Assembly: GCA_030690415.1 (NCBI GenBank)
Contig: JAUYGZ010000012.1
Span: 19,325 to 83,324 of the forward strand
Source of the DNA: a bacterium
GTDB taxonomy: Bacteria; Patescibacteriota; Gracilibacteria; JAUYGZ01
Direction of reading: 5' to 3'
Length of the DNA: 64,000 bases
Positions 18,435 to 50,440 of this stretch are shown one piece after another. The notes beneath the pieces were generated by a model. That model ran no database searches. It had not been told where the DNA came from and worked only from the letters and a program-made list of their open reading frames with translations. The first letter of the stretch is position 1. The number at the start of each line of letters is the position of its first letter. A program made the position numbers and the translations under genes.

Positions 18435-19790
18435 CTACAACCTCTGTCCCAACCATTCACCGAGTTCTTCGATCTTCACCCTCACCTGCTCCATACTATC
18501 CCGATCCCTCACCGTCACCGCCTGATCATCTTTCGTTTCATAATCCACCGTGACACAATACGGGGTTCCAATTTCATCCTGCCGGCGGTACCGCTTCCCA
18601 ATCGATCCTCCATCATCGTATTCCACAGCATAATCAATGATCAGATCATCAAAGATTTTTTCGGCAATCATATCCAGCCCATCTTTTTTCATCAAGGGCA
18701 TGACTGCGATCTTCACCGGTGCCATGTGGTGTGCAAACTTCATCACGATACGAGTATCACCATCAGGAAGTATCTCCTCCGTATAGGCATCACAAAGAAT
18801 GGCAAGCAATGATCGCTCGACTCCAAAAGTCGGCTCGACCACGTGGGGAACAAATCGCTCGTTGGTAATCGGATCTTGGTAATTCAGGGTCTTGCCGGAA
18901 TGCTCAGCATGCTGCCTCAAATCGAAATCGGTCCGATAAGCCAAACCATAGAGCTCACTTCGTCCAAAAGGAAAATCATACACAATATCTACCGTCCGCC
19001 TGGAGTAGTGGGACAGTTTTTCTTTGGGATGCTCATACTCATGACATTTCTCGGAATGAAGACCGATCAACTCACACCACTCATGCATGGATTTGAGCCA
19101 GTCATCAAAAACACCCTTCCACTGCTCTTCCCGAATAAAATATTCGATCTCCATCTGTTCGAATTCGAGCAAACGAAAGACAAAATTCCCAGGAGTGATT
19201 TCATTCCGGAAGGCTTTCCCGATCTGAGCAACTCCAAAAGGCAATTTGACGCGCATCGAATCAACAATGTTTTTATAGGTCAGAAAAATAGCCTGCGCCG
19301 TCTCAGGACGAAGATAGACCGTAGAATCTTCATCACCGGTCTTAGAAAGCTGTGTCGTAAACATCAGATTGAAGTAACGGGCAGCCGTAAAATCTTTCTT
19401 TCCGCATTTGGGACACTTCACGTCATTTTCCTCGATTAGTTTAGTCAAATCCGCTTCATTCAATCCCTCCGCCTCAATATTCAAAGCACCCTCGATCAGA
19501 TGATCTGCCCGGTGACGTGCCTTACAGTTTTTACAGTCCACCATAGCATCATTGAAGCCTTCCACATGACCGGATGCCACCCAAGTCCTGGGGTGAAGCA
19601 TAATCCCTCCATCAATCCCAACCATATCCCTCCGGGACTGAACAAAAATCTTCCACCATAGGTCCTTAATATTTTTCTTCAACTCTGCTCCATAGGGACC
19701 ATAGGTATAGCTATTGGCGAAACCTCCATAAATCTCTGATCCCGGATAGACAAATCCACGACGTTTGCAGAGAGAAATGATTTTATCCAT
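18435..19790 (-). CDS. glyQS: Glycine--tRNA ligase (single-chain class II GlyRS)
   Basis: 451 aa. The MDKIISLCKRRGFVYPGSEIYGGFANSYTYGPYGAELKKNIKDLWW N-terminus is typical of GlyQS. ATG at 19790. Confidence 0.95.
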   Translation of the reverse strand: MDKIISLCKRRGFVYPGSEIYGGFANSYTYGPYGAELKKNIKDLWWKIFVQSRRDMVGIDGGIMLHPRTWVASGHVEGFNDAMVDCKNCKARHRADHLIEGALNIEAEGLNEADLTKLIEENDVKCPKCGKKDFTAARYFNLMFTTQLSKTGDEDSTVYLRPETAQAIFLTYKNIVDSMRVKLPFGVAQIGKAFRNEITPGNFVFRLLEFEQMEIEYFIREEQWKGVFDDWLKSMHEWCELIGLHSEKCHEYEHPKEKLSHYSRRTVDIVYDFPFGRSELYGLAYRTDFDLRQHAEHSGKTLNYQDPITNERFVPHVVEPTFGVERSLLAILCDAYTEEILPDGDTRIVMKFAHHMAPVKIAVMPLMKKDGLDMIAEKIFDDLIIDYAVEYDDGGSIGKRYRRQDEIGTPYCVTVDYETKDDQAVTVRDRDSMEQVRVKIEELGEWLGQRL

Positions 19791-41932: not shown

Positions 41933-41971
41933 AAAAAACTCCTCTAAAACCCTTAAAGAGGAGTTTTTTTA
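41933..41971. terminator. Bidirectional rho-independent terminator
   Basis: aaaaaa-ctcctct-aaaaccctta-aagaggag-ttttttt between convergent genes. Confidence 0.75.
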
Positions 41972-42343
41972 TGTTTTCGAAACATATTCCACTCCATCCA
42001 AACCTTTAAAATCCGCATCCTGAGTCCAGAGCCGGGCCTCATATTTTCGCGCGGTAGCCAGAATAATACTATCAGCCATCGGAAGGCTGAGCCCATCACT
42101 CAGCTGAGCCGCCAACACAGAAAGCTCCAAATCAAAATCGATAATGTTCCCTTGTCTCATGTGAGCAACGACTCGAAGAGCGGAAGACTCATCCCGTTCG
42201 TGTAGGACCTTTTTAAAAACCTCATATAAGACAATCGTTGGGACAAGAAGACGTTTCGTATCTTCAATCGCCTTCAAAAAATATCTTGCCCTTGTCGTAT
42301 TGGCAAAAAACTCTAACCAGGCTGAAGAATCAACAAGATTCAT
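41969..42343 (-). CDS. vapC: PIN-domain toxin VapC
   Basis: 124 aa. Sequence MNLVDSSAWLEFF...LVPTIVLYEV...ADSIILATA...LWTQDADF shows the conserved acidic residues of PIN. The start overlaps the upstream antitoxin stop by 4 nt. Confidence 0.88.
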   Translation of the reverse strand: MNLVDSSAWLEFFANTTRARYFLKAIEDTKRLLVPTIVLYEVFKKVLHERDESSALRVVAHMRQGNIIDFDLELSVLAAQLSDGLSLPMADSIILATARKYEARLWTQDADFKGLDGVEYVSKT

Positions 42344-42546
42344 AATCTGTCTTTATCACGCGTAATAGTGGTATCCATACCCTTCAGGAAACCCTTCAGA
42401 GTGGAAATGGGCTGGATGGGAATAAGTTCAATTCGCTCACCAAACAGAATAACCTCCAGCTTCATTCCGGAACGGAGCTTCATCGAGTCCCGAACAGCCT
42501 TGGGAATAACCACTTGAAATTTTGGGGAAAGAGTTACGGTATTCAT
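42340..42546 (-). CDS. vapB: AbrB/SpoVT-fold antitoxin VapB
   Basis: 68 aa. LSPKFQVVIPKAVRDSMKLRSGMKLEVI is the swapped-hairpin AbrB-like motif. Confidence 0.85.
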   Translation of the reverse strand: MNTVTLSPKFQVVIPKAVRDSMKLRSGMKLEVILFGERIELIPIQPISTLKGFLKGMDTTITRDKDRL

Positions 42547-45674: not shown

Positions 45675-45691
45675 TCAATAATCATACACCC

Positions 45692-45719
45692 GTAGAAACG
45701 CATAGCTATGCGTCTCTAC
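45692..45719. repeat. Degenerate REP palindrome gtagaaacgcatag/ctatgcgtctctac
   Basis: Read directly; one arm mismatch. Followed by acgcggacctacgcatctcaccgttcatacccac. Confidence 0.7.
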
Positions 45720-45769
45720 ACGCGGACCTACGCATCTCACCGTTCATACCCACCCGCCAACGCCACCCC

Positions 45770-45798
45770 GTACAGACGTTTTGCCAAAACATCTCTAC
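45770..45798. repeat. Degenerate REP palindrome gtacagacgtttt-gcc-aaaacatctctac
   Basis: Read directly; two arm mismatches. Confidence 0.55.
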
Positions 45799-45872
45799 CC
45801 CCTTCACGCCCCCTCCCCCTTTTTCTGATTTGTGGTTGATTTATTGCGCGAGTTTGATATCATAGAGATACA

Positions 45873-45916
45873 AAGCTTGGACGCTGAAGCTATTGCTACA
45901 GTGCTTCCGGGTGTCA
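45873..45916 (-). other. Inverted, rearranged fragments of the adjacent tRNA-like gene
   Basis: 45873..45885 (aagcttggacgct) is the reverse complement of 45993..46005 at 12/13 positions, and the mismatch would be G:U in RNA. 45904..45916 (cttccgggtgtca) is the exact reverse complement of 46005..46017. The order of the two pieces is swapped relative to the tRNA. Confidence 0.7.
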
Positions 45917-45971
45917 CAGAAACTCTTCCTCACGGGAGGGTTTTTCTGTATGCTCCAAAAGCTGGTGGTAT

Positions 45972-46047
45972 GGGGGCGTAGCTTAATGGTAAAGCGTCCG
46001 AGCTTGACACCCGGAAGATGCCGGTTCAATTCCGACCACCTCCACCA
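45972..46047 (+). tRNA. Aberrant tRNA-like gene (76 nt, CCA encoded): alanine-type acceptor (G3:U70, A73), apparent anticodon TGA, three A:C mismatches; possibly a pseudo-tRNA
   Basis: Hand fold. Acceptor GGGGGCG/CACCTCC has G3:T70 and C6:A67. D arm GCTT-AATGGTA-AAGC. Two nt precede the anticodon arm CCGAG-CTTGACA-CCCGG, which has an A:C mismatch and extends to 6 bp with T:A. Variable region AAGAT. T arm GCCGG-TTCAATT-CCGAC has a C:A mismatch. Ends in ACCA. Confidence 0.5.
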
Positions 46048-46184
46048 GCATATTAAGAAATGGGGACGATGAATCAAAAGGTTTTTTTATTGTGCGGGCT
46101 GAACATTTATGAACCCCTGGCTAAATAAACCCGTACAGACGCCACGATAAATTGTAGAGACACCCCGTAGAGACGTTTGACCCC

Positions 46185-46213
46185 GTAGAGACGCCCCGGC
46201 GGGGCGTCTCTAC
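46185..46213. repeat. REP palindrome gtagagacgcccc-ggc-ggggcgtctctac
   Basis: Perfect 13-nt arms. Preceded by three half-sites (ccgtacagacgcc, tgtagagacacc, ccgtagagacgtt) at 46131..46177. Confidence 0.85.
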
Positions 46214-46384
46214 ACGCACACCATCGCAAACCATCGCAAACCAACGCATCCCCGTTCATACCCACGCAACCCACACGACCCTGCGCATACCCACAAAAAC
46301 AAAACATAAACATCCGTACGTAAAGACCATCCGTGAATGGTCCTTATTAATTATGGTAATATACAATTGTTCTATATCGTTCCA

Positions 46385-47170
46385 ATGTTTCCATCCGCAA
46401 CGTACCACCTTATCGACGAATCCCGATTCCGTGGAAAATACCGTATCGAATCGACGCGACTAAAACATTACGATTATTCATCGGATGGCGCGTATTTCAT
46501 CACCATCTGCGCGAAAAATATGGAACATTTTTTTGGGGAAATACGGGATGGGGAGATGCGATTATCAGAAATGGGGAAAATTGTTGCGCATGAATGGGAA
46601 CAGACAGAAATTATACGCAATTATATTATTTTGGATGAATGGGTGGTGATGCCGAATCATTTTCATGCCATCGTGATCATTAATAAACCAATAACCACAC
46701 CCACTCGAACGACACCATATATGTATACAACCACCACAAATATGCCTCCGACGGGACGTTTGGCCCCCGTAGAGACGCCCCGCCGGGGCGTCTCTACAAT
46801 ATATCGGGGCGTCTCTACACCGTATACAACACGCCGGGGCGTCATCACGAATGGGGGCGCATTTTCGAACACGGATACGGACAAAAACATGGATTACACC
46901 ACAGTTACCAATACGACCGTTTCACCATATAAAAATCCCAATCACAAACCCCAATGGAAACCAGGTTGTCTTGGCGCAATTATTAACCAATTTAAATCCA
47001 AATGTACTAAACTCATTCGCACTATATATCCCGATTTTTCGTGGCAATCCAGATTCCACGACCGCATCATCCGTGATGAGAACGCACTGAATCACATCCG
47101 CGAATACATCAGAAACAACCCCATGAATTGGGAAAATGATCGGAACAATACGAAAAATCTGAATATGTAA
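46385..47170 (+). CDS. REP-associated tyrosine transposase (RAYT; IS200/IS605 Y1 HUH family) with a REP-containing low-complexity insert
   Basis: Start at the ATG at 46385 (MFPSATYHLIDESRFRGKYRIESTRL). HUH motif in VVMPNHFHAIVI. C-terminal WQSRFHDRIIRDENALNHIREYIRNNPMNW carries the catalytic Tyr context YI..NP. The insert PVETPRRGVSTIYRGVSTPYTTRRGV is encoded by REP sequence. Confidence 0.85.
   Translation: MFPSATYHLIDESRFRGKYRIESTRLKHYDYSSDGAYFITICAKNMEHFFGEIRDGEMRLSEMGKIVAHEWEQTEIIRNYIILDEWVVMPNHFHAIVIINKPITTPTRTTPYMYTTTTNMPPTGRLAPVETPRRGVSTIYRGVSTPYTTRRGVITNGGAFSNTDTDKNMDYTTVTNTTVSPYKNPNHKPQWKPGCLGAIINQFKSKCTKLIRTIYPDFSWQSRFHDRIIRDENALNHIREYIRNNPMNWENDRNNTKNLNM
46769..46818. repeat. Intragenic REP palindrome (46769..46797) plus an extra half-site (46806..46818) inside the RAYT ORF
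   Basis: gtagagacgcccc-gcc-ggggcgtctctac followed by ggggcgtctctac, in frame in the transposase coding sequence. Confidence 0.85.
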
Positions 47171-47253: not shown

Positions 47254-48297
47254 CTACTCCACCACCCCCCTCTTTTCTTCCTGATACTGGGCGATAGCTC
47301 TTTGAATCATAAACTCAACCGGGGAGTCCATATGGATAGGAATCAGCTCTACGGTTGGTCTCCTGGTCTGATAGACCCGAAAAACCTCATCAGCAAAACC
47401 CTGGCCAACCAGTTGAATTTTTTTAAAATCAAGAATGATCGTATCGAAACCTTCCAACCCTTCGAGGAGTTTTTTTGCCTGGGAACGCGAGACATAGCTA
47501 TCTTCCTGTTTGTAGAGCTCGACAATGGTTTGGGTCTTCGAGAAGCGAAAATCATCATTGGTGTACTGGTCAAAAACACTTTTCAATTCCTTATCACTAC
47601 TTTTTCTCATCCGAAAAATGACTCTGGTTCCTTTTACCGGTTTGATTTCATCAACAAAAACATCTGGAATGGTGTTGTCAAAAATGAGGTGAAGCTTCGA
47701 GCTCATGATTTCGAACCGATCAGCGATTTTTGACGTAAAAAATATTCCCTGCCCAGAGTGATATTTTGGAGAGGTTGTCTGCTTCCCTTTCAGGACACGC
47801 TGAAGCGCTTCGTAATTATCTTTGAGCTGAAATTTTTTTCTGAGATTGTTAAAGATTCCTATCCCCCGATCTGTGATCTCAAAGGAGATTTCTGCCCTAT
47901 TGGCAGTAAAATCAACGGTTACTTTCGAAGAACGCGAATGCTCAATCGCGTTATTCAGCATTTCAGTAAAGGCATAGCTGAGAATACTCTCGACATTTTT
48001 TTTGAGATAATCATGAATAAGATGTTGAATCTTTCCATAAACCTCGTCTTCCTTGAGTGCTGTGTTGTTGAAAGTCTTGTGAAACTGCATGTCAAAAAAG
48101 TGAGACCGTTCCGACGTCAGCACATAAAAAGACCCCTTTGTCTTCCCGATCTGAAAAACCTGCCCTTCATGAACGAGTTCTGAAATAAGTTTACTCGCGT
48201 AAACCCGGGATACGCCTAAAGATCTGGCAATTTCCTGACTATCAATACGCCCATTTTTCTTGAGGATATCGAATATGTGTTGTTTCTTATTTAACAT
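47254..48297 (-). CDS. Single-polypeptide wHTH - GHKL/HATPase_c-like ATPase - STAS-like (DUF4325-type) protein
   Basis: The N-terminus NGRIDSQEIARSLGVSRVYASKLISELVHEGQV is a winged HTH. N-box is FTEMLNNAIEHS, G1 is ITDRGIGI, G2-like is HSGQGIFF. The C-terminus TIILDFKKIQLVGQGFADEVFRVY fits the remembered DUF4325 STAS-like pattern. Confidence 0.7.
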   Translation of the reverse strand: MLNKKQHIFDILKKNGRIDSQEIARSLGVSRVYASKLISELVHEGQVFQIGKTKGSFYVLTSERSHFFDMQFHKTFNNTALKEDEVYGKIQHLIHDYLKKNVESILSYAFTEMLNNAIEHSRSSKVTVDFTANRAEISFEITDRGIGIFNNLRKKFQLKDNYEALQRVLKGKQTTSPKYHSGQGIFFTSKIADRFEIMSSKLHLIFDNTIPDVFVDEIKPVKGTRVIFRMRKSSDKELKSVFDQYTNDDFRFSKTQTIVELYKQEDSYVSRSQAKKLLEGLEGFDTIILDFKKIQLVGQGFADEVFRVYQTRRPTVELIPIHMDSPVEFMIQRAIAQYQEEKRGVVE

Positions 48298-48721: not shown

Positions 48722-50440
48722 TCACTCCAATATATGCCCTCCCAGGGAATCCAACTTTATATTCGTATAGTTTGCCGCGTCGGAGACAATCACATAGGCT
48801 GTCTCCACCATGTGCCGCAACTCAATCAAACCCTCACTCAAGGCTGACTGACTATACCGTCGCTCAACCTCTCTCCAGAGCTCACGCAGCTCATCCCGGG
48901 CTTCGAACAGCTGTTCCTTTCGACGAATAATTCCCACCTTCTCCCACATCACAGTCCGAATCCGAGACTTGAACTCCTTAATCTCCACCTCATCCACCTT
49001 CTTCGTCCCGAACGACTCCCATTCTTCCAGCAGTTCAAACGCCTTTTTTAAATCAAAACGCTTCATCCCTCGTTTCTCATTTGTAATTTGTCCCTTTCCA
49101 TCCTTCTTATAATCCTTATCGTCTTTATCGTCTTTATCGTCTTTATCCTCTTTATCATCCTTCTTCAAGGCTTCCGCTACCTTCACCCCCCAGGTCAGAC
49201 ACTCCAGCAAAGAAGTCGAAGCCAAACGATTCGCCCCGTGAACCCCTGTACAGGCCACCTCCCCTGCGGCAAACAAACCGGACAAATCAGTCCTTCCATC
49301 CAAATCAACCGCAATCCCCCCACAAAAAAAGTGTTCTGCCGGCACCACTGGTATGGGATCTCGAGTGATATCAATACCCTCTTCTAGACACCGCTGATAA
49401 ATGTCAGGAAACCGCTCCGGAATAGGGACGCTCCCCGTATAATACTCCGAAAGATTCAAAAACACAGTGCCTTCCTTATTCTCCTTATTCTCCTTATTCT
49501 CCTTATCATCCTTATCATCCTTATAGTCCTTCTTCATCTCCATCATCGCCCGGCACACCACCGACCGTGGCTCCAGGTCTTTCAACGGAAACCGATCCAT
49601 GAAATACTCGCCTTTTTGATTCATCAGCCTCGCCCCCTCCCCCCTCATCGACTCCGAGATCAAAAACAAGCGACCCCACTTCCCCCTATCATCCTTATCG
49701 TCCTTCCCCGGCCGCAAGGCCGTCGGGTGAAACTGCACAAACCTCGCGTTCAGGATTCGGACTCTGGCCCTATTCGCCGCCGCGATACCACTCCCGTAGG
49801 CATGCTCAGCATTGGTATGGTATTCATAAACCTGACCAATCCCCCCGGAACACAGTATCGTATGTTCGGCAAAAAACGGCTTCACCTCTTCTGTCTTCAG
49901 ATCGAAAAGATAGGCTCCAAGACAGCGATTCGGCTGGTACCGGAATTCATAACCCCTGCAATGGTGAACACTCGTGAGCAGATCCACGAGTACATGTCCG
50001 GCAAGAAATGTGACATGGGGACTTTTTTGAATCGCCCGAAACATCGCCTCCATAATGGTCTTCCCCGAATGATCTCCGGCGTGCAAAATCCTCGCCACAC
50101 TGTGAGCCGCCTCTTGAGTAAAGGAATCATCAAAAGAAACCCCTGCCCCCTCAATCAACACCTCATTCACCAAATCAACCCCTTCCCGAGCCAACTGCTC
50201 AATAGCAGGGAGATACCCAATTCCGGCGCCAGCCTTCACAATATCCTGAATCAAAAGTTCGGCCGTGTCTCCAGAGGAACGAGAGATAATTCCCCCTTGA
50301 GCCAATACCGAATTCGATCCCTCCAACACGGACTCATCCTTGGTCACCACCGTACAGGCAATCCCCAGCTGAGAAAGCCGATAGGCAACTGACAATCCCG
50401 CTAGTCCCGAGCCGATAATTAAAACAGGCGTTCGTTTCAT
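48722..50440 (-). CDS. nadB: L-aspartate oxidase with three in-frame Lys/Asp-rich repeat insertions
   Basis: VLIIGSGLAGLSVAYRL FAD fold, FHPTAL, ISESMRGEGARL and GGIAVD...GLFAAGEVACTGVHGANRLASTSLLE motifs. Inserts are GKDDKDDRGKWG, KKDYKDDKDDKENKENKENKEG and KKDDKEDKDDKDDKDDKDYKKDGKG. Confidence 0.93.
   Translation of the reverse strand: MKRTPVLIIGSGLAGLSVAYRLSQLGIACTVVTKDESVLEGSNSVLAQGGIISRSSGDTAELLIQDIVKAGAGIGYLPAIEQLAREGVDLVNEVLIEGAGVSFDDSFTQEAAHSVARILHAGDHSGKTIMEAMFRAIQKSPHVTFLAGHVLVDLLTSVHHCRGYEFRYQPNRCLGAYLFDLKTEEVKPFFAEHTILCSGGIGQVYEYHTNAEHAYGSGIAAANRARVRILNARFVQFHPTALRPGKDDKDDRGKWGRLFLISESMRGEGARLMNQKGEYFMDRFPLKDLEPRSVVCRAMMEMKKDYKDDKDDKENKENKENKEGTVFLNLSEYYTGSVPIPERFPDIYQRCLEEGIDITRDPIPVVPAEHFFCGGIAVDLDGRTDLSGLFAAGEVACTGVHGANRLASTSLLECLTWGVKVAEALKKDDKEDKDDKDDKDDKDYKKDGKGQITNEKRGMKRFDLKKAFELLEEWESFGTKKVDEVEIKEFKSRIRTVMWEKVGIIRRKEQLFEARDELRELWREVERRYSQSALSEGLIELRHMVETAYVIVSDAANYTNIKLDSLGGHILE
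49101..49166 (-). repeat. KD-repeat insertion 1 in nadB (9-nt tandem atcgtcttt x3 plus 2 variant units)
   Basis: Units at 49118, 49127 and 49136 are perfect; 49145 and 49154 are variants. Encodes KKDDKEDKDDKDDKDDKDYKKD. Confidence 0.85.
49474..49535 (-). repeat. KD-repeat insertion 2 in nadB (9-nt tandem ccttattct x3, ccttatcat x2, ccttatagt)
   Basis: Read directly. Encodes KDYKDDKDDKENKENKENKE. Confidence 0.85.
49687..49709 (-). repeat. KD-repeat insertion 3 in nadB (tatcatccttatcgtccttcccc)
   Basis: Same core and the same ccttcccc end as the intergenic copy at 54071..54115. Encodes GKDDKDDR. Confidence 0.75.

Follow-up and report, generated by a model that had tools for sequence, protein, structure and literature searches.

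An alanine-type tRNA-like gene and a complementary small RNA gene in a Gracilibacteria genome: a probable two-gene RNA module

The 64,000-nt stretch of DNA analysed here (the window; positions 19,325 to 83,324, forward strand, of contig JAUYGZ010000012.1, assembly GCA_030690415.1, lineage Patescibacteriota; Gracilibacteria; JAUYGZ01) carries a tRNA-like gene of alanine type at 45972..46047 (+). A previous sequence-only reading had treated it as a single aberrant gene. The tRNA-like gene is real, but its partner, a small RNA (sRNA) gene that is key to the locus, had been overlooked, and the unit also includes about 135 nt upstream (45836-45971). We consider it probable, with moderate confidence, that the locus is a two-gene RNA module in which a dedicated antisense sRNA sequesters a tRNA mimic that accepts alanine and for the most part does not decode. 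The comparative sequence evidence points firmly to two existing and conserved genes, to a cognate-specific, co-evolving complementarity over tRNA positions 1-46, to action in trans and to a weak anticodon stem in the tRNA-like RNA.

The tRNA-like gene is 76 nt long and its cloverleaf can be parsed as GGGGGCG/TA/GCTT/AATGGTA/AAGC/G/TCCGAG/CTTGACA/CCCGGA/AGAT/GCCGG/TTCAATT/CCGAC/CACCTCC/A/CCA. ARAGORN called a tRNA-Ser(tga) at exactly 45972-46047 and the Rfam family RF00005 scored 49.4 bits against a gathering score of 29 (E=1.5e-7 over the 64-kb window). Both programs agree with the cloverleaf claimed before, the covariance-model score being far beyond chance. The other structural claims were also borne out by the parsed sequence: the G3:U70 pair, A73 and the encoded CCA are all present, and the 7-nt anticodon loop CUUGACA shows the triplet UGA, with U33 and a C at position 37. 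Where either an extra nucleotide or a 6-bp anticodon stem had been suggested, we found a stem of six positions with an A.C mismatch at the fifth. The two further A.C mismatches that had been reported are located in the acceptor stem (C6.A67) and in the T stem (C50.A64), and all three resemble G-to-A transitions. Among the 21 members of the family described below, the mismatches 6:67 and 50:64 are private to the window copy; the one in the anticodon stem is a family trait. The sole open reading frame (ORF) across the gene is a spurious antisense frame, and no small-peptide gene was found there.

Upstream of the tRNA-like gene an sRNA of about 80 nt is predicted at 45870..45949 (+), its start being placed about 7 nt past the -10 box and its 3' end in a T-tract. 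The putative promoter (45836..45863, +) is of the sigma-70 type and consists of TTGATT, a 16-nt spacer and TATCAT, with a TG before the second hexamer. In a promoter scan it was the only site in 45700-46200, with 0.5 sites expected from shuffled sequences, and the box is conserved in the paralogous locus of the same genome and in relatives. The intrinsic terminator (45916..45949, +), the only such site in 500 nt in a terminator scan, comprises a core stem at 45924-45940, the T-tract and a flanking ACAGAAA/TTTCTGT pairing. Its consensus fold has 13 pairs, and distant members differ in sequence with compensating substitutions. The covariance model R1 matches the sRNA of the window with 74.1 bits (E=3e-14). 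No Rfam match to the upstream sRNA unit was obtained, neither at E<=10 around the locus nor in gathering-threshold scans of 18 related loci, where RF00005 alone passed.

The variable part of the sRNA is 45 nt long and consists of three blocks, each directed against a part of the tRNA-like RNA. Segment A (AAGCTTGGACGCT, 45873..45885, +) is complementary to 45993-46005, i.e., the 3' strand of the D stem, the 5' strand of the anticodon stem and the first loop nucleotides (tRNA positions ~21-34). Segment H (45886..45908, +), a small hairpin as long as the sRNA is free, has its complement in the 5' strand of the acceptor stem and the D arm (positions ~1-20). Segment B (CTTCCGGGTGTCA, 45904..45916, +) is complementary to 46005-46017, comprising loop nucleotides 34-38, the 3' strand of the anticodon stem and the start of the variable loop (positions 34-46). 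A and H together form a contiguous antisense of positions 1-34, and B, the next 13 nt, is permuted, being placed after A+H and abutting the terminator. Segments A and B correspond to two 13-nt inverted repeats that link the upstream region to both halves of the anticodon arm, 45873-45885/45993-46005 (I5; 13/13 pairs with one G.U allowed) and 45904-45916/46005-46017 (I4; 13/13 perfect). In the predicted fold of the free sRNA, A and B pair to form a stem that encloses hairpin H, the terminator comes next, and the most accessible stretch is the linker that could pair with the anticodon loop.

A whole-genome search with ARAGORN revealed a second 76-nt "tRNA-Ser(tga)" on contig C12, which is a paralogue of the window gene. 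Homology between the two loci begins about 130 nt upstream of the tRNA-like gene. Shared between them are the promoter-like box, a terminator-like hairpin, a CTGGTGG motif complementary to the CCACCAG 3' end and a pair of segments able to base-pair with the anticodon arm. The sequences of these segments differ between the loci, and at each locus they fit their own tRNA-like RNA. Loci were gathered by BLAST in relatives, by hairpin-anchored exact-pattern scans of genomes and metagenomes, with the covariance model R1 and by a pattern screen starting from the tRNA. The search for related loci that had been proposed thus yielded, besides the paralogue in the same genome, about 20 distinct loci, all of Peribacteria/Peregrinibacteria type within the candidate phyla radiation (CPR) except for one contig binned as Nitrospirae. 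The pattern scans also gave false positives, which were discarded, namely four Jutongia-like coding loci (L027, L032, L034, L036). R1 matched 4/9 genomes of the order and 12 of the 151 that were sampled from the class, each with 1-6 copies; its two weakest matches (L055, L056) look false and the module of genome G064 was missed. The module is present in 4/7 genomes of the family and in about 11-12/151 of the class. No conserved protein gene was found beside it among the loci.

The complementarity between the two RNAs is specific for cognate pairs. The longest uninterrupted run averages 9.9 nt for segment A in cognate pairs versus 5.6 nt in non-cognate pairs, and 10.9 versus 6.1 nt for segment B; for either segment 0/5000 permutations reached the observed value. 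Segment H has a mean run of 9.5 nt, compared with 6.1 nt for shuffled sRNA, and pairs over up to 20 nt without interruption in relatives. With RNAduplex, cognate combinations gave -38 kcal/mol and non-cognate ones -26 kcal/mol. The cognate partner ranked first in 12/15 cases, the exceptions being close paralogues. Moreover, each of the two sRNAs of the window genome ranks its own tRNA-like RNA first among the 43 tRNAs of this genome.

To count base pairs we used 15 concatenated sRNA and tRNA-like pairs in a MAFFT alignment (A2) that was not fitted to the structure. The helix between segment B and the tRNA-like RNA is 96.4% paired, with compensatory changes in 10/13 pairs, whereas slid partners are paired to 41-53%. 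For segment A, 78% pairing was found and 10/12 pairs are compensatory; the 78% is an underestimate, as the rows of this segment are register-shifted in the alignment and were not refitted in order to avoid circularity. The helix between H and the acceptor strand is 88% paired versus 15-51% when slid, and acceptor position 6 co-varies with the sRNA (AU 7, GC 5, GU 1), as does loop position 36 (column 132; UA 7, AU 6, GC 2). Over all helices the controls slid by 1-3 columns gave 15-53%. The acceptor, D and T stems of the tRNA-like RNAs are 95-97% paired, and their own anticodon stem 83%, with one position unpaired in 9/15 pairs. By these counts, the intermolecular B helix is kept better than the anticodon stem of the tRNA-like RNA itself, and both the cloverleaf and the intermolecular duplex are maintained. 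Many of the intermolecular pairs are G.U, and therefore the constraint acts on the RNA of this strand. Cognate-specific complementarity upheld by compensatory changes, as found here, is the mark of a dedicated trans-acting antisense pair.

On RF00005 the tRNA-like members of the family score 34-71 bits, which puts the window copy in the middle of the range. G1-C72, G2-C71 and G3.U70 are kept in 20/21 members, and A73 and the CCA end in 20/21 each. The features of the elbow are retained as well, namely U8, a D loop AAYGGTA with its GG and a T loop TTCRAWT. The anticodon arm is non-standard: fifteen of the 21 members have a stem of six positions, each of the fifteen with exactly one non-pair, C37 is found in 17/21, and the loop triplets (UGA, GGU, UGU, CGU, GAU, GUC, UGC and CGA) co-vary with the sRNA. 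One member, L053 (G109:C1, convergent), has G3-C70 in place of G3.U70, the canonical loop UUGUCAC and A37, and is the only one without the alanine mark.

The window copy has a variable loop of 4 nt and A73 as its discriminator, whereas the true tRNA-Ser genes of the genome are 90-93 nt long with G73. A tRNA-Ser identity was rejected, the long variable arm and G73 both being absent. The tRNA-Ala identity set (G3:U70, A73, CCA) is complete, the acceptor stem is very close to that of the genome's own tRNA-Ala, and an alanyl-tRNA synthetase (AlaRS) is encoded. By these features the RNA would be derived from tRNA-Ala, with what AlaRS requires (acceptor/T domain and elbow) preserved and an anticodon arm that is free to vary; its alanylation is predicted on the same grounds. 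Since AlaRS ignores the anticodon (PMC10543346), a tRNA-Ala scaffold leaves its anticodon arm free to diverge and to serve as the address by which an RNA partner finds it.

The earlier suggestion of a mistranslating or regulatory RNA went in the right direction as far as regulation is concerned; that the RNA reads UCA is doubtful. A working mistranslating tRNA would read UCA/UCG (Ser) and insert alanine. U33 and the 7-nt loop would allow this, as would the alanine identity elements with a synthetase indifferent to the anticodon, and the proposed inventory of tRNA genes revealed a canonical 90-nt tRNA-Ser(UGA), next to tRNA-Ala(UGC) and tRNA-Ala(GGC), so that the gene would be an extra, competing decoder. 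However, position 37 is a purine in essentially all decoding tRNAs and is C here and in most members, the stem of six positions contains a mismatch, the acceptor and T stems of the window copy are mismatched too, and the triplet varies freely, together with the sRNA. We regard this possibility as very unlikely. As the loop triplet varies and C37 prevails, the UGA of the window copy is probably not a serine anticodon in use. A canonical elongator tRNA was likewise rejected: the cloverleaf score is sufficient, but neither a 5-bp anticodon stem nor a purine at position 37 is present, and the anticodon is not conserved among orthologues.

The order of the two genes is variable. Most commonly the sRNA lies just upstream of the tRNA-like gene, in L005, L031 and L035 it lies just downstream, and in genome G109 (L053, L059) the tRNA-like gene is convergent, on the opposite strand. 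The complementarity is retained in every arrangement. The variable order, including convergent pairs, argues for separate transcripts of the sRNA and the tRNA-like RNA and for action in trans. Together with the predicted promoter and terminator, it favours an independent transcription unit for the sRNA. The tRNA-like gene could also have a promoter of its own. The -10-like hexamer TATGCT (45949..45954, +), a candidate promoter element, overlaps the end of the sRNA terminator, and a TAnnnT hexamer occurs at this position in 15/16 loci in which the tRNA-like gene follows and in 0/9 other arrangements, these loci being related and not independent. This distribution suggests that the hexamer belongs to the tRNA-like gene.

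A second element between the genes was read directly from the sequence. The leader GCTGGTGG (45961..45968, +) is complementary to CCACCAGC (46041-46048), which consists of the ACCA 3' end and the trailer. Such a helix, CUGGUGG/CCACCAG, is present in 2/43 tRNA genes of the genome, both of them tRNA-like genes, and it is conserved in relatives. It would mask the ACCA end in the precursor.

This helix bears on the possibility that the whole region is a single cis-acting structured precursor, in which the upstream part would serve as a self-blocking or T-box-like leader controlling read-through or processing. In most loci the sRNA is indeed directly upstream on the same strand, the minimum free energy fold of 45866-46052 is a stable joint structure (z = -4.2), and the pairing of the leader UGGU with ACCA resembles T-box antiterminators. 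But the sRNA unit has a predicted promoter and terminator of its own, the -10 box for the tRNA-like gene is situated past this terminator, and no Rfam T-box matched at E<=10. We attach very little probability to this model. A co-transcribed leader in particular was rejected on account of the loci with the sRNA downstream or on the opposite strand.

With two separate transcripts, the antisense module that we favour could operate as follows. The open sRNA nucleotides between the hairpin and the terminator would touch the anticodon loop first. Segment B would then displace the 3' strand of the anticodon stem, which is kept weak by its mismatch, and segment A would take the freed 5' strand, amounting to an exchange between two hairpins with a four-way-junction-like intermediate. 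Pairing might zip on through H into the D arm and the acceptor strand, so that the cloverleaf opens up. Once it is unfolded, or its arm is blocked, the mimic could no longer be charged or used, and the long duplex would be a likely substrate of RNase III, which is encoded in the genome. The order of binding, the alanylation, the cleavage by RNase III and the biological purpose are what we infer from these features. Structure prediction for dimers is consistent with binding, as 21/21 pairs gain 7-21 kcal/mol over the separate folds. The predicted dimers adopt one of two modes, either A+H with positions 1-34 or B with 34-46. The purpose of the module is probably to keep under tight control an Ala-tRNA mimic that does not decode and that may be harmful or conditional.

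Several observations weigh against this interpretation. Full A+H pairing and full B pairing are geometrically incompatible on one tRNA molecule; in model terms the real complex could be a junction, the product of sequential binding or a 2:1 complex. The relatedness of the sequences inflates the covariation statistics. In the window copy the complementarity of H is weak (7-8 nt), and this weakness together with the two private A.C mismatches means that this copy may be impaired or slightly eroded.

The last point leads to a further explanation, namely that the window copy is a decaying, non-functional member of the family in a REP/RAYT hotspot (repetitive extragenic palindromes and the associated transposase), similar to the pseudo-tRNA that had been considered before. 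The mismatches point in this direction, clusters of REPs and a RAYT-like ORF flank the locus, and remnant copies exist elsewhere in the family. On the other hand, the RF00005 score is unremarkable for the family, the promoter and terminator of the partner sRNA are intact as far as can be predicted, segments A and B fit the tRNA-like RNA over their full length, and an A.C mismatch can form a protonated wobble pair. A non-functional copy is therefore considered unlikely. For the element as such, decay does not apply, as the family is conserved and its sRNA co-evolves; a mild erosion of the window copy is the part of the earlier proposal that may hold.

The occurrence of the module is reminiscent of an accessory or selfish element, as it is patchy and present in multiple orthogonal copies, with orphan sRNAs. 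In four remnants the tRNA-like gene, and not the sRNA, has been lost: L016 (G005:C34), L058 (G043:C2), L015 (G001:C165) and L050 (G140:C3). Here the sRNA gene is followed by just the last 13-20 nt of the tRNA-like gene (…CGGCTCCACCAGG) or by nothing. The screen starting from the tRNA found no stand-alone tRNA-like gene in the clade; a cognate sRNA was located beside every alanine-type one, in a small sample.

These observations would also fit an RNA-only toxin-antitoxin, addiction or defence module. In such a system the alanine-charged mimic would be harmful unless covered by its short-lived private antisense sRNA, and loss of transcription or of the locus would release it. Harm could arise by mis-insertion of alanine, by jamming of ribosomes or by titration of AlaRS, EF-Tu or RNase P. 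The patchy distribution with 1-6 diverged and mutually orthogonal copies per genome, the two adjacent RNA genes without a conserved protein partner, the deletions that removed the tRNA-like gene alone and the constant presence of a cognate sRNA in the small screen all speak for this idea. It is opposed by two members, L029 and L031, which carry the cognate Ala triplet UGC, so that mistranslation is not the general toxic principle, and by C37 and the odd stem, which speak against efficient decoding. We therefore hold such a toxic function to be possible yet unlikely.

An alternative role would be that of a regulated, non-ribosomal alanine donor, in which the charged mimic is used by a transferase that depends on aminoacyl-tRNA, such as an enzyme of the FemAB type that builds peptidoglycan bridges, and the sRNA tunes its supply. 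Non-proteinogenic tRNAs that serve Fem enzymes have a precedent in the tRNA-Gly species of Staphylococcus. The alanine identity and the acceptor/T domain are conserved and the anticodon arm is not, as this role would require, and two genes of the FemAB family are encoded, one of them about 2 kb from alaS (C12:135078-135977 and C12:138191-139537). However, FemAB is found in 147/151 genomes of the class and the module in about 12, without a co-occurrence signal. As FemAB is nearly universal and the module confined to few genomes, the module is not needed for FemAB function. The hypervariable, orthogonal pairs of arm and sRNA and the multiple copies are also left unexplained, and we consider an alanine donor rather improbable. 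A gene for alanine tailing by RqcH/NFACT was not found in this 98.8% complete genome.

Finally, the roles could be reversed, the tRNA-like RNA being a sponge or decoy that titrates the sRNA, with the real sRNA targets elsewhere. In E. coli tRNA-precursor fragments sponge sRNAs, as in the case of 3'ETS-leuZ, which provides a precedent. Against this, almost all of the 45 variable nucleotides of an sRNA serve the pairing with its cognate tRNA-like RNA, and the conserved alanine identity would be left without a reason. A search of the genome for a second target of either of its two sRNAs gave nothing convincing. The best candidate, a 15-nt perfect complement of the C12 sRNA (CTCAATACGGCACCC) at G000 C12:~92370-92385 (+), is located on the opposite strand of an ABC-ATPase-like gene and is at chance level. 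A sponge is accordingly the sort of explanation to which we give hardly any credence.

When the proposed antisense module is compared with known systems, the type I toxin-antitoxin pairs (hok/sok, ibs/sib, tisB/istR-1) and CopA/CopT are similar in that a short, separately promoted and terminator-ended RNA stands beside a single dedicated target, and in that several diverged, non-cross-reacting copies occur per genome with a patchy distribution. In the module two folded hairpins would have to exchange strands, probably via a loop contact and a four-way junction, which is how CopA/CopT has been described. The differences are that the target of the module is tRNA-shaped and neither an mRNA nor a source of a peptide, and that its antisense RNA is a separate gene with permuted blocks instead of the opposite strand of the target. 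Type I itself was rejected, the target being a 76-nt tRNA-like RNA without a toxic-peptide gene. The type VIII systems SdsR/RyeA and CreT/CreA share with the module that they are RNA-only, and the toxicity of CreT involves the tRNA pool. The effector and antidote RNAs of a type VIII system are encoded together, which has its counterpart in the two adjacent RNA genes, toxicity being putative here. Unlike the module, CreA targets a promoter by way of a CRISPR effector, SdsR and RyeA are genuine antisense RNAs in cis, and none of these systems has a tRNA mimic with an aminoacylation identity.

Among tRNA-shaped molecules, hybrid-identity tRNAs (tRNA-Ala anticodon variants and the bacterial tRNA-ProA/ProX) also combine the alanine acceptor identity G3:U70 with a non-alanine triplet. 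They are, however, canonical decoders with a purine 37, a 5-bp stem and no partner RNA, whereas the anticodon arm of the module is hypervariable and co-evolves with the sRNA. The tRNA-like domain of transfer-messenger RNA (tmRNA; RF00023), including reduced or tag-less tmRNAs, is non-decoding and has G3:U70, A73, CCA and a conserved T arm, a set shared by the module, for which charging is predicted. Unlike tmRNA, the RNA of the module has complete D and anticodon arms and contains neither a message nor pseudoknots. A tmRNA reading was rejected: the arms are complete, an ordinary tmRNA is encoded elsewhere in the genome, and tmRNA_permuted gave 18.6 bits against a gathering score of 47, with the T arm alone.

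T-box leaders (RF00230) likewise rely on base pairing, both to read the anticodon region and, with a UGGN-type element, to bind the NCCA end. The pairing of the module extends over ~45 nt and would unfold the partner rather than dock to it, and this partner is a private tRNA-like RNA instead of a cellular tRNA. A T-box leader was rejected because RF00230 did not match at E<=10, no regulated aminoacyl-tRNA synthetase or transporter gene is present, and the sRNA is also found downstream or convergent. Guide topologies like those of IS110 bridge RNAs or H/ACA RNAs were rejected by reasoning, as both sRNA halves pair with the same strand and the order of the A:t1 and B:t2 pairings is crossing.

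A literature search on tRNA-like RNAs, mistranslating tRNA-Ala, antisense RNAs in CPR, Peribacteria tRNAs and RNA toxin-antitoxin systems did not turn up a description of such a pair, and Rfam 15 does not describe the module. In the Peribacteria genome paper the tRNAs were merely counted (46). From linked antisense pairs, type VIII systems, hybrid-identity tRNAs and the tmRNA domain the module departs in a defining respect each time. If our interpretation holds, CPR bacteria possess tRNA-derived RNAs that keep a synthetase identity, abandon decoding and are each policed by their own antisense RNA. The unfolding of a cloverleaf by a small RNA would then be a new mode of control on a tRNA-shaped molecule, and the loci would form a natural collection of orthogonal RNA-RNA pairs and perhaps a system for addiction or defence that consists of RNA only. 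There is also a consequence for annotation. Gene finders label these genes as tRNA-Ser, Thr, Ile, Asp or Gly, by which CPR tRNA inventories and inferences on codon capacity are inflated and distorted.

The window is part of contig C23 of the genome G000, which comprises 1.45 Mb in 30 contigs. The genome has a full canonical set of tRNAs (43 tRNA genes including the two tRNA-like ones). As had been stated, the surroundings are rich in REPs: REP-like palindromes (GTAGAGACG...CGTCTCTAC) are clustered at 45684-45800 and 46125-46320, on both sides of the module, and a REP hairpin lies just downstream of the C12 paralogue too. The ORF at 46337-47170 (+) has a weak match to Y1_Tnp (IS200-like; 20 bits versus a cut-off of 23) and a Thr/Pro-rich insert; with the palindromes around it, it resembles a RAYT and the REPs that belong to it.

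Two copies of a 17-nt direct repeat (GGTTGATTTATTGCGCG / GGTTTTTTTATTGTGCG, 82%) flank the module at 45834-45850 and 46080-46096, 246 nt apart. The first copy overlaps the -35 box of the sRNA. The other may be a duplication scar, or what is left of the promoter of an additional sRNA that has been lost; a tandem sRNA-tRNA-sRNA arrangement is seen in genome G140. Three tRNA-like genes of the family, L018 (G001:C68), L054 (G054:C6) and L052 (G043:C2), either have an extra ~40-60 nt, itself a hairpin, inserted after the T arm and ahead of the 3' acceptor strand, or show an interruption of the D/anticodon region; they may represent intron-like inserts, REP insertions or decay.

Some further genes in the neighbourhood were recorded. 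At 41969-42343 (-), 3.5 kb from the module, a PIN-domain (VapC-like) protein is encoded (61.9 bits), and with the small overlapping upstream ORF at 42340-42546 (-) it forms a probable type II toxin-antitoxin pair. Adjoining the RAYT-like ORF, the gene at 47254-48297 (-) encodes a protein of 347 aa with an N-terminal helix-turn-helix, a histidine-kinase-like ATPase domain and a C-terminal STAS-like DUF4325, which resembles a regulator of the anti-sigma-factor type. The gene at 48722-50440 (-) encodes a flavoprotein of the L-aspartate-oxidase type (FAD_binding_2, 226 bits) with two lysine/aspartate-rich low-complexity inserts (KDDKDDKENKENKENKE; KKDDKEDKDDKDDKDDKDYKKD).

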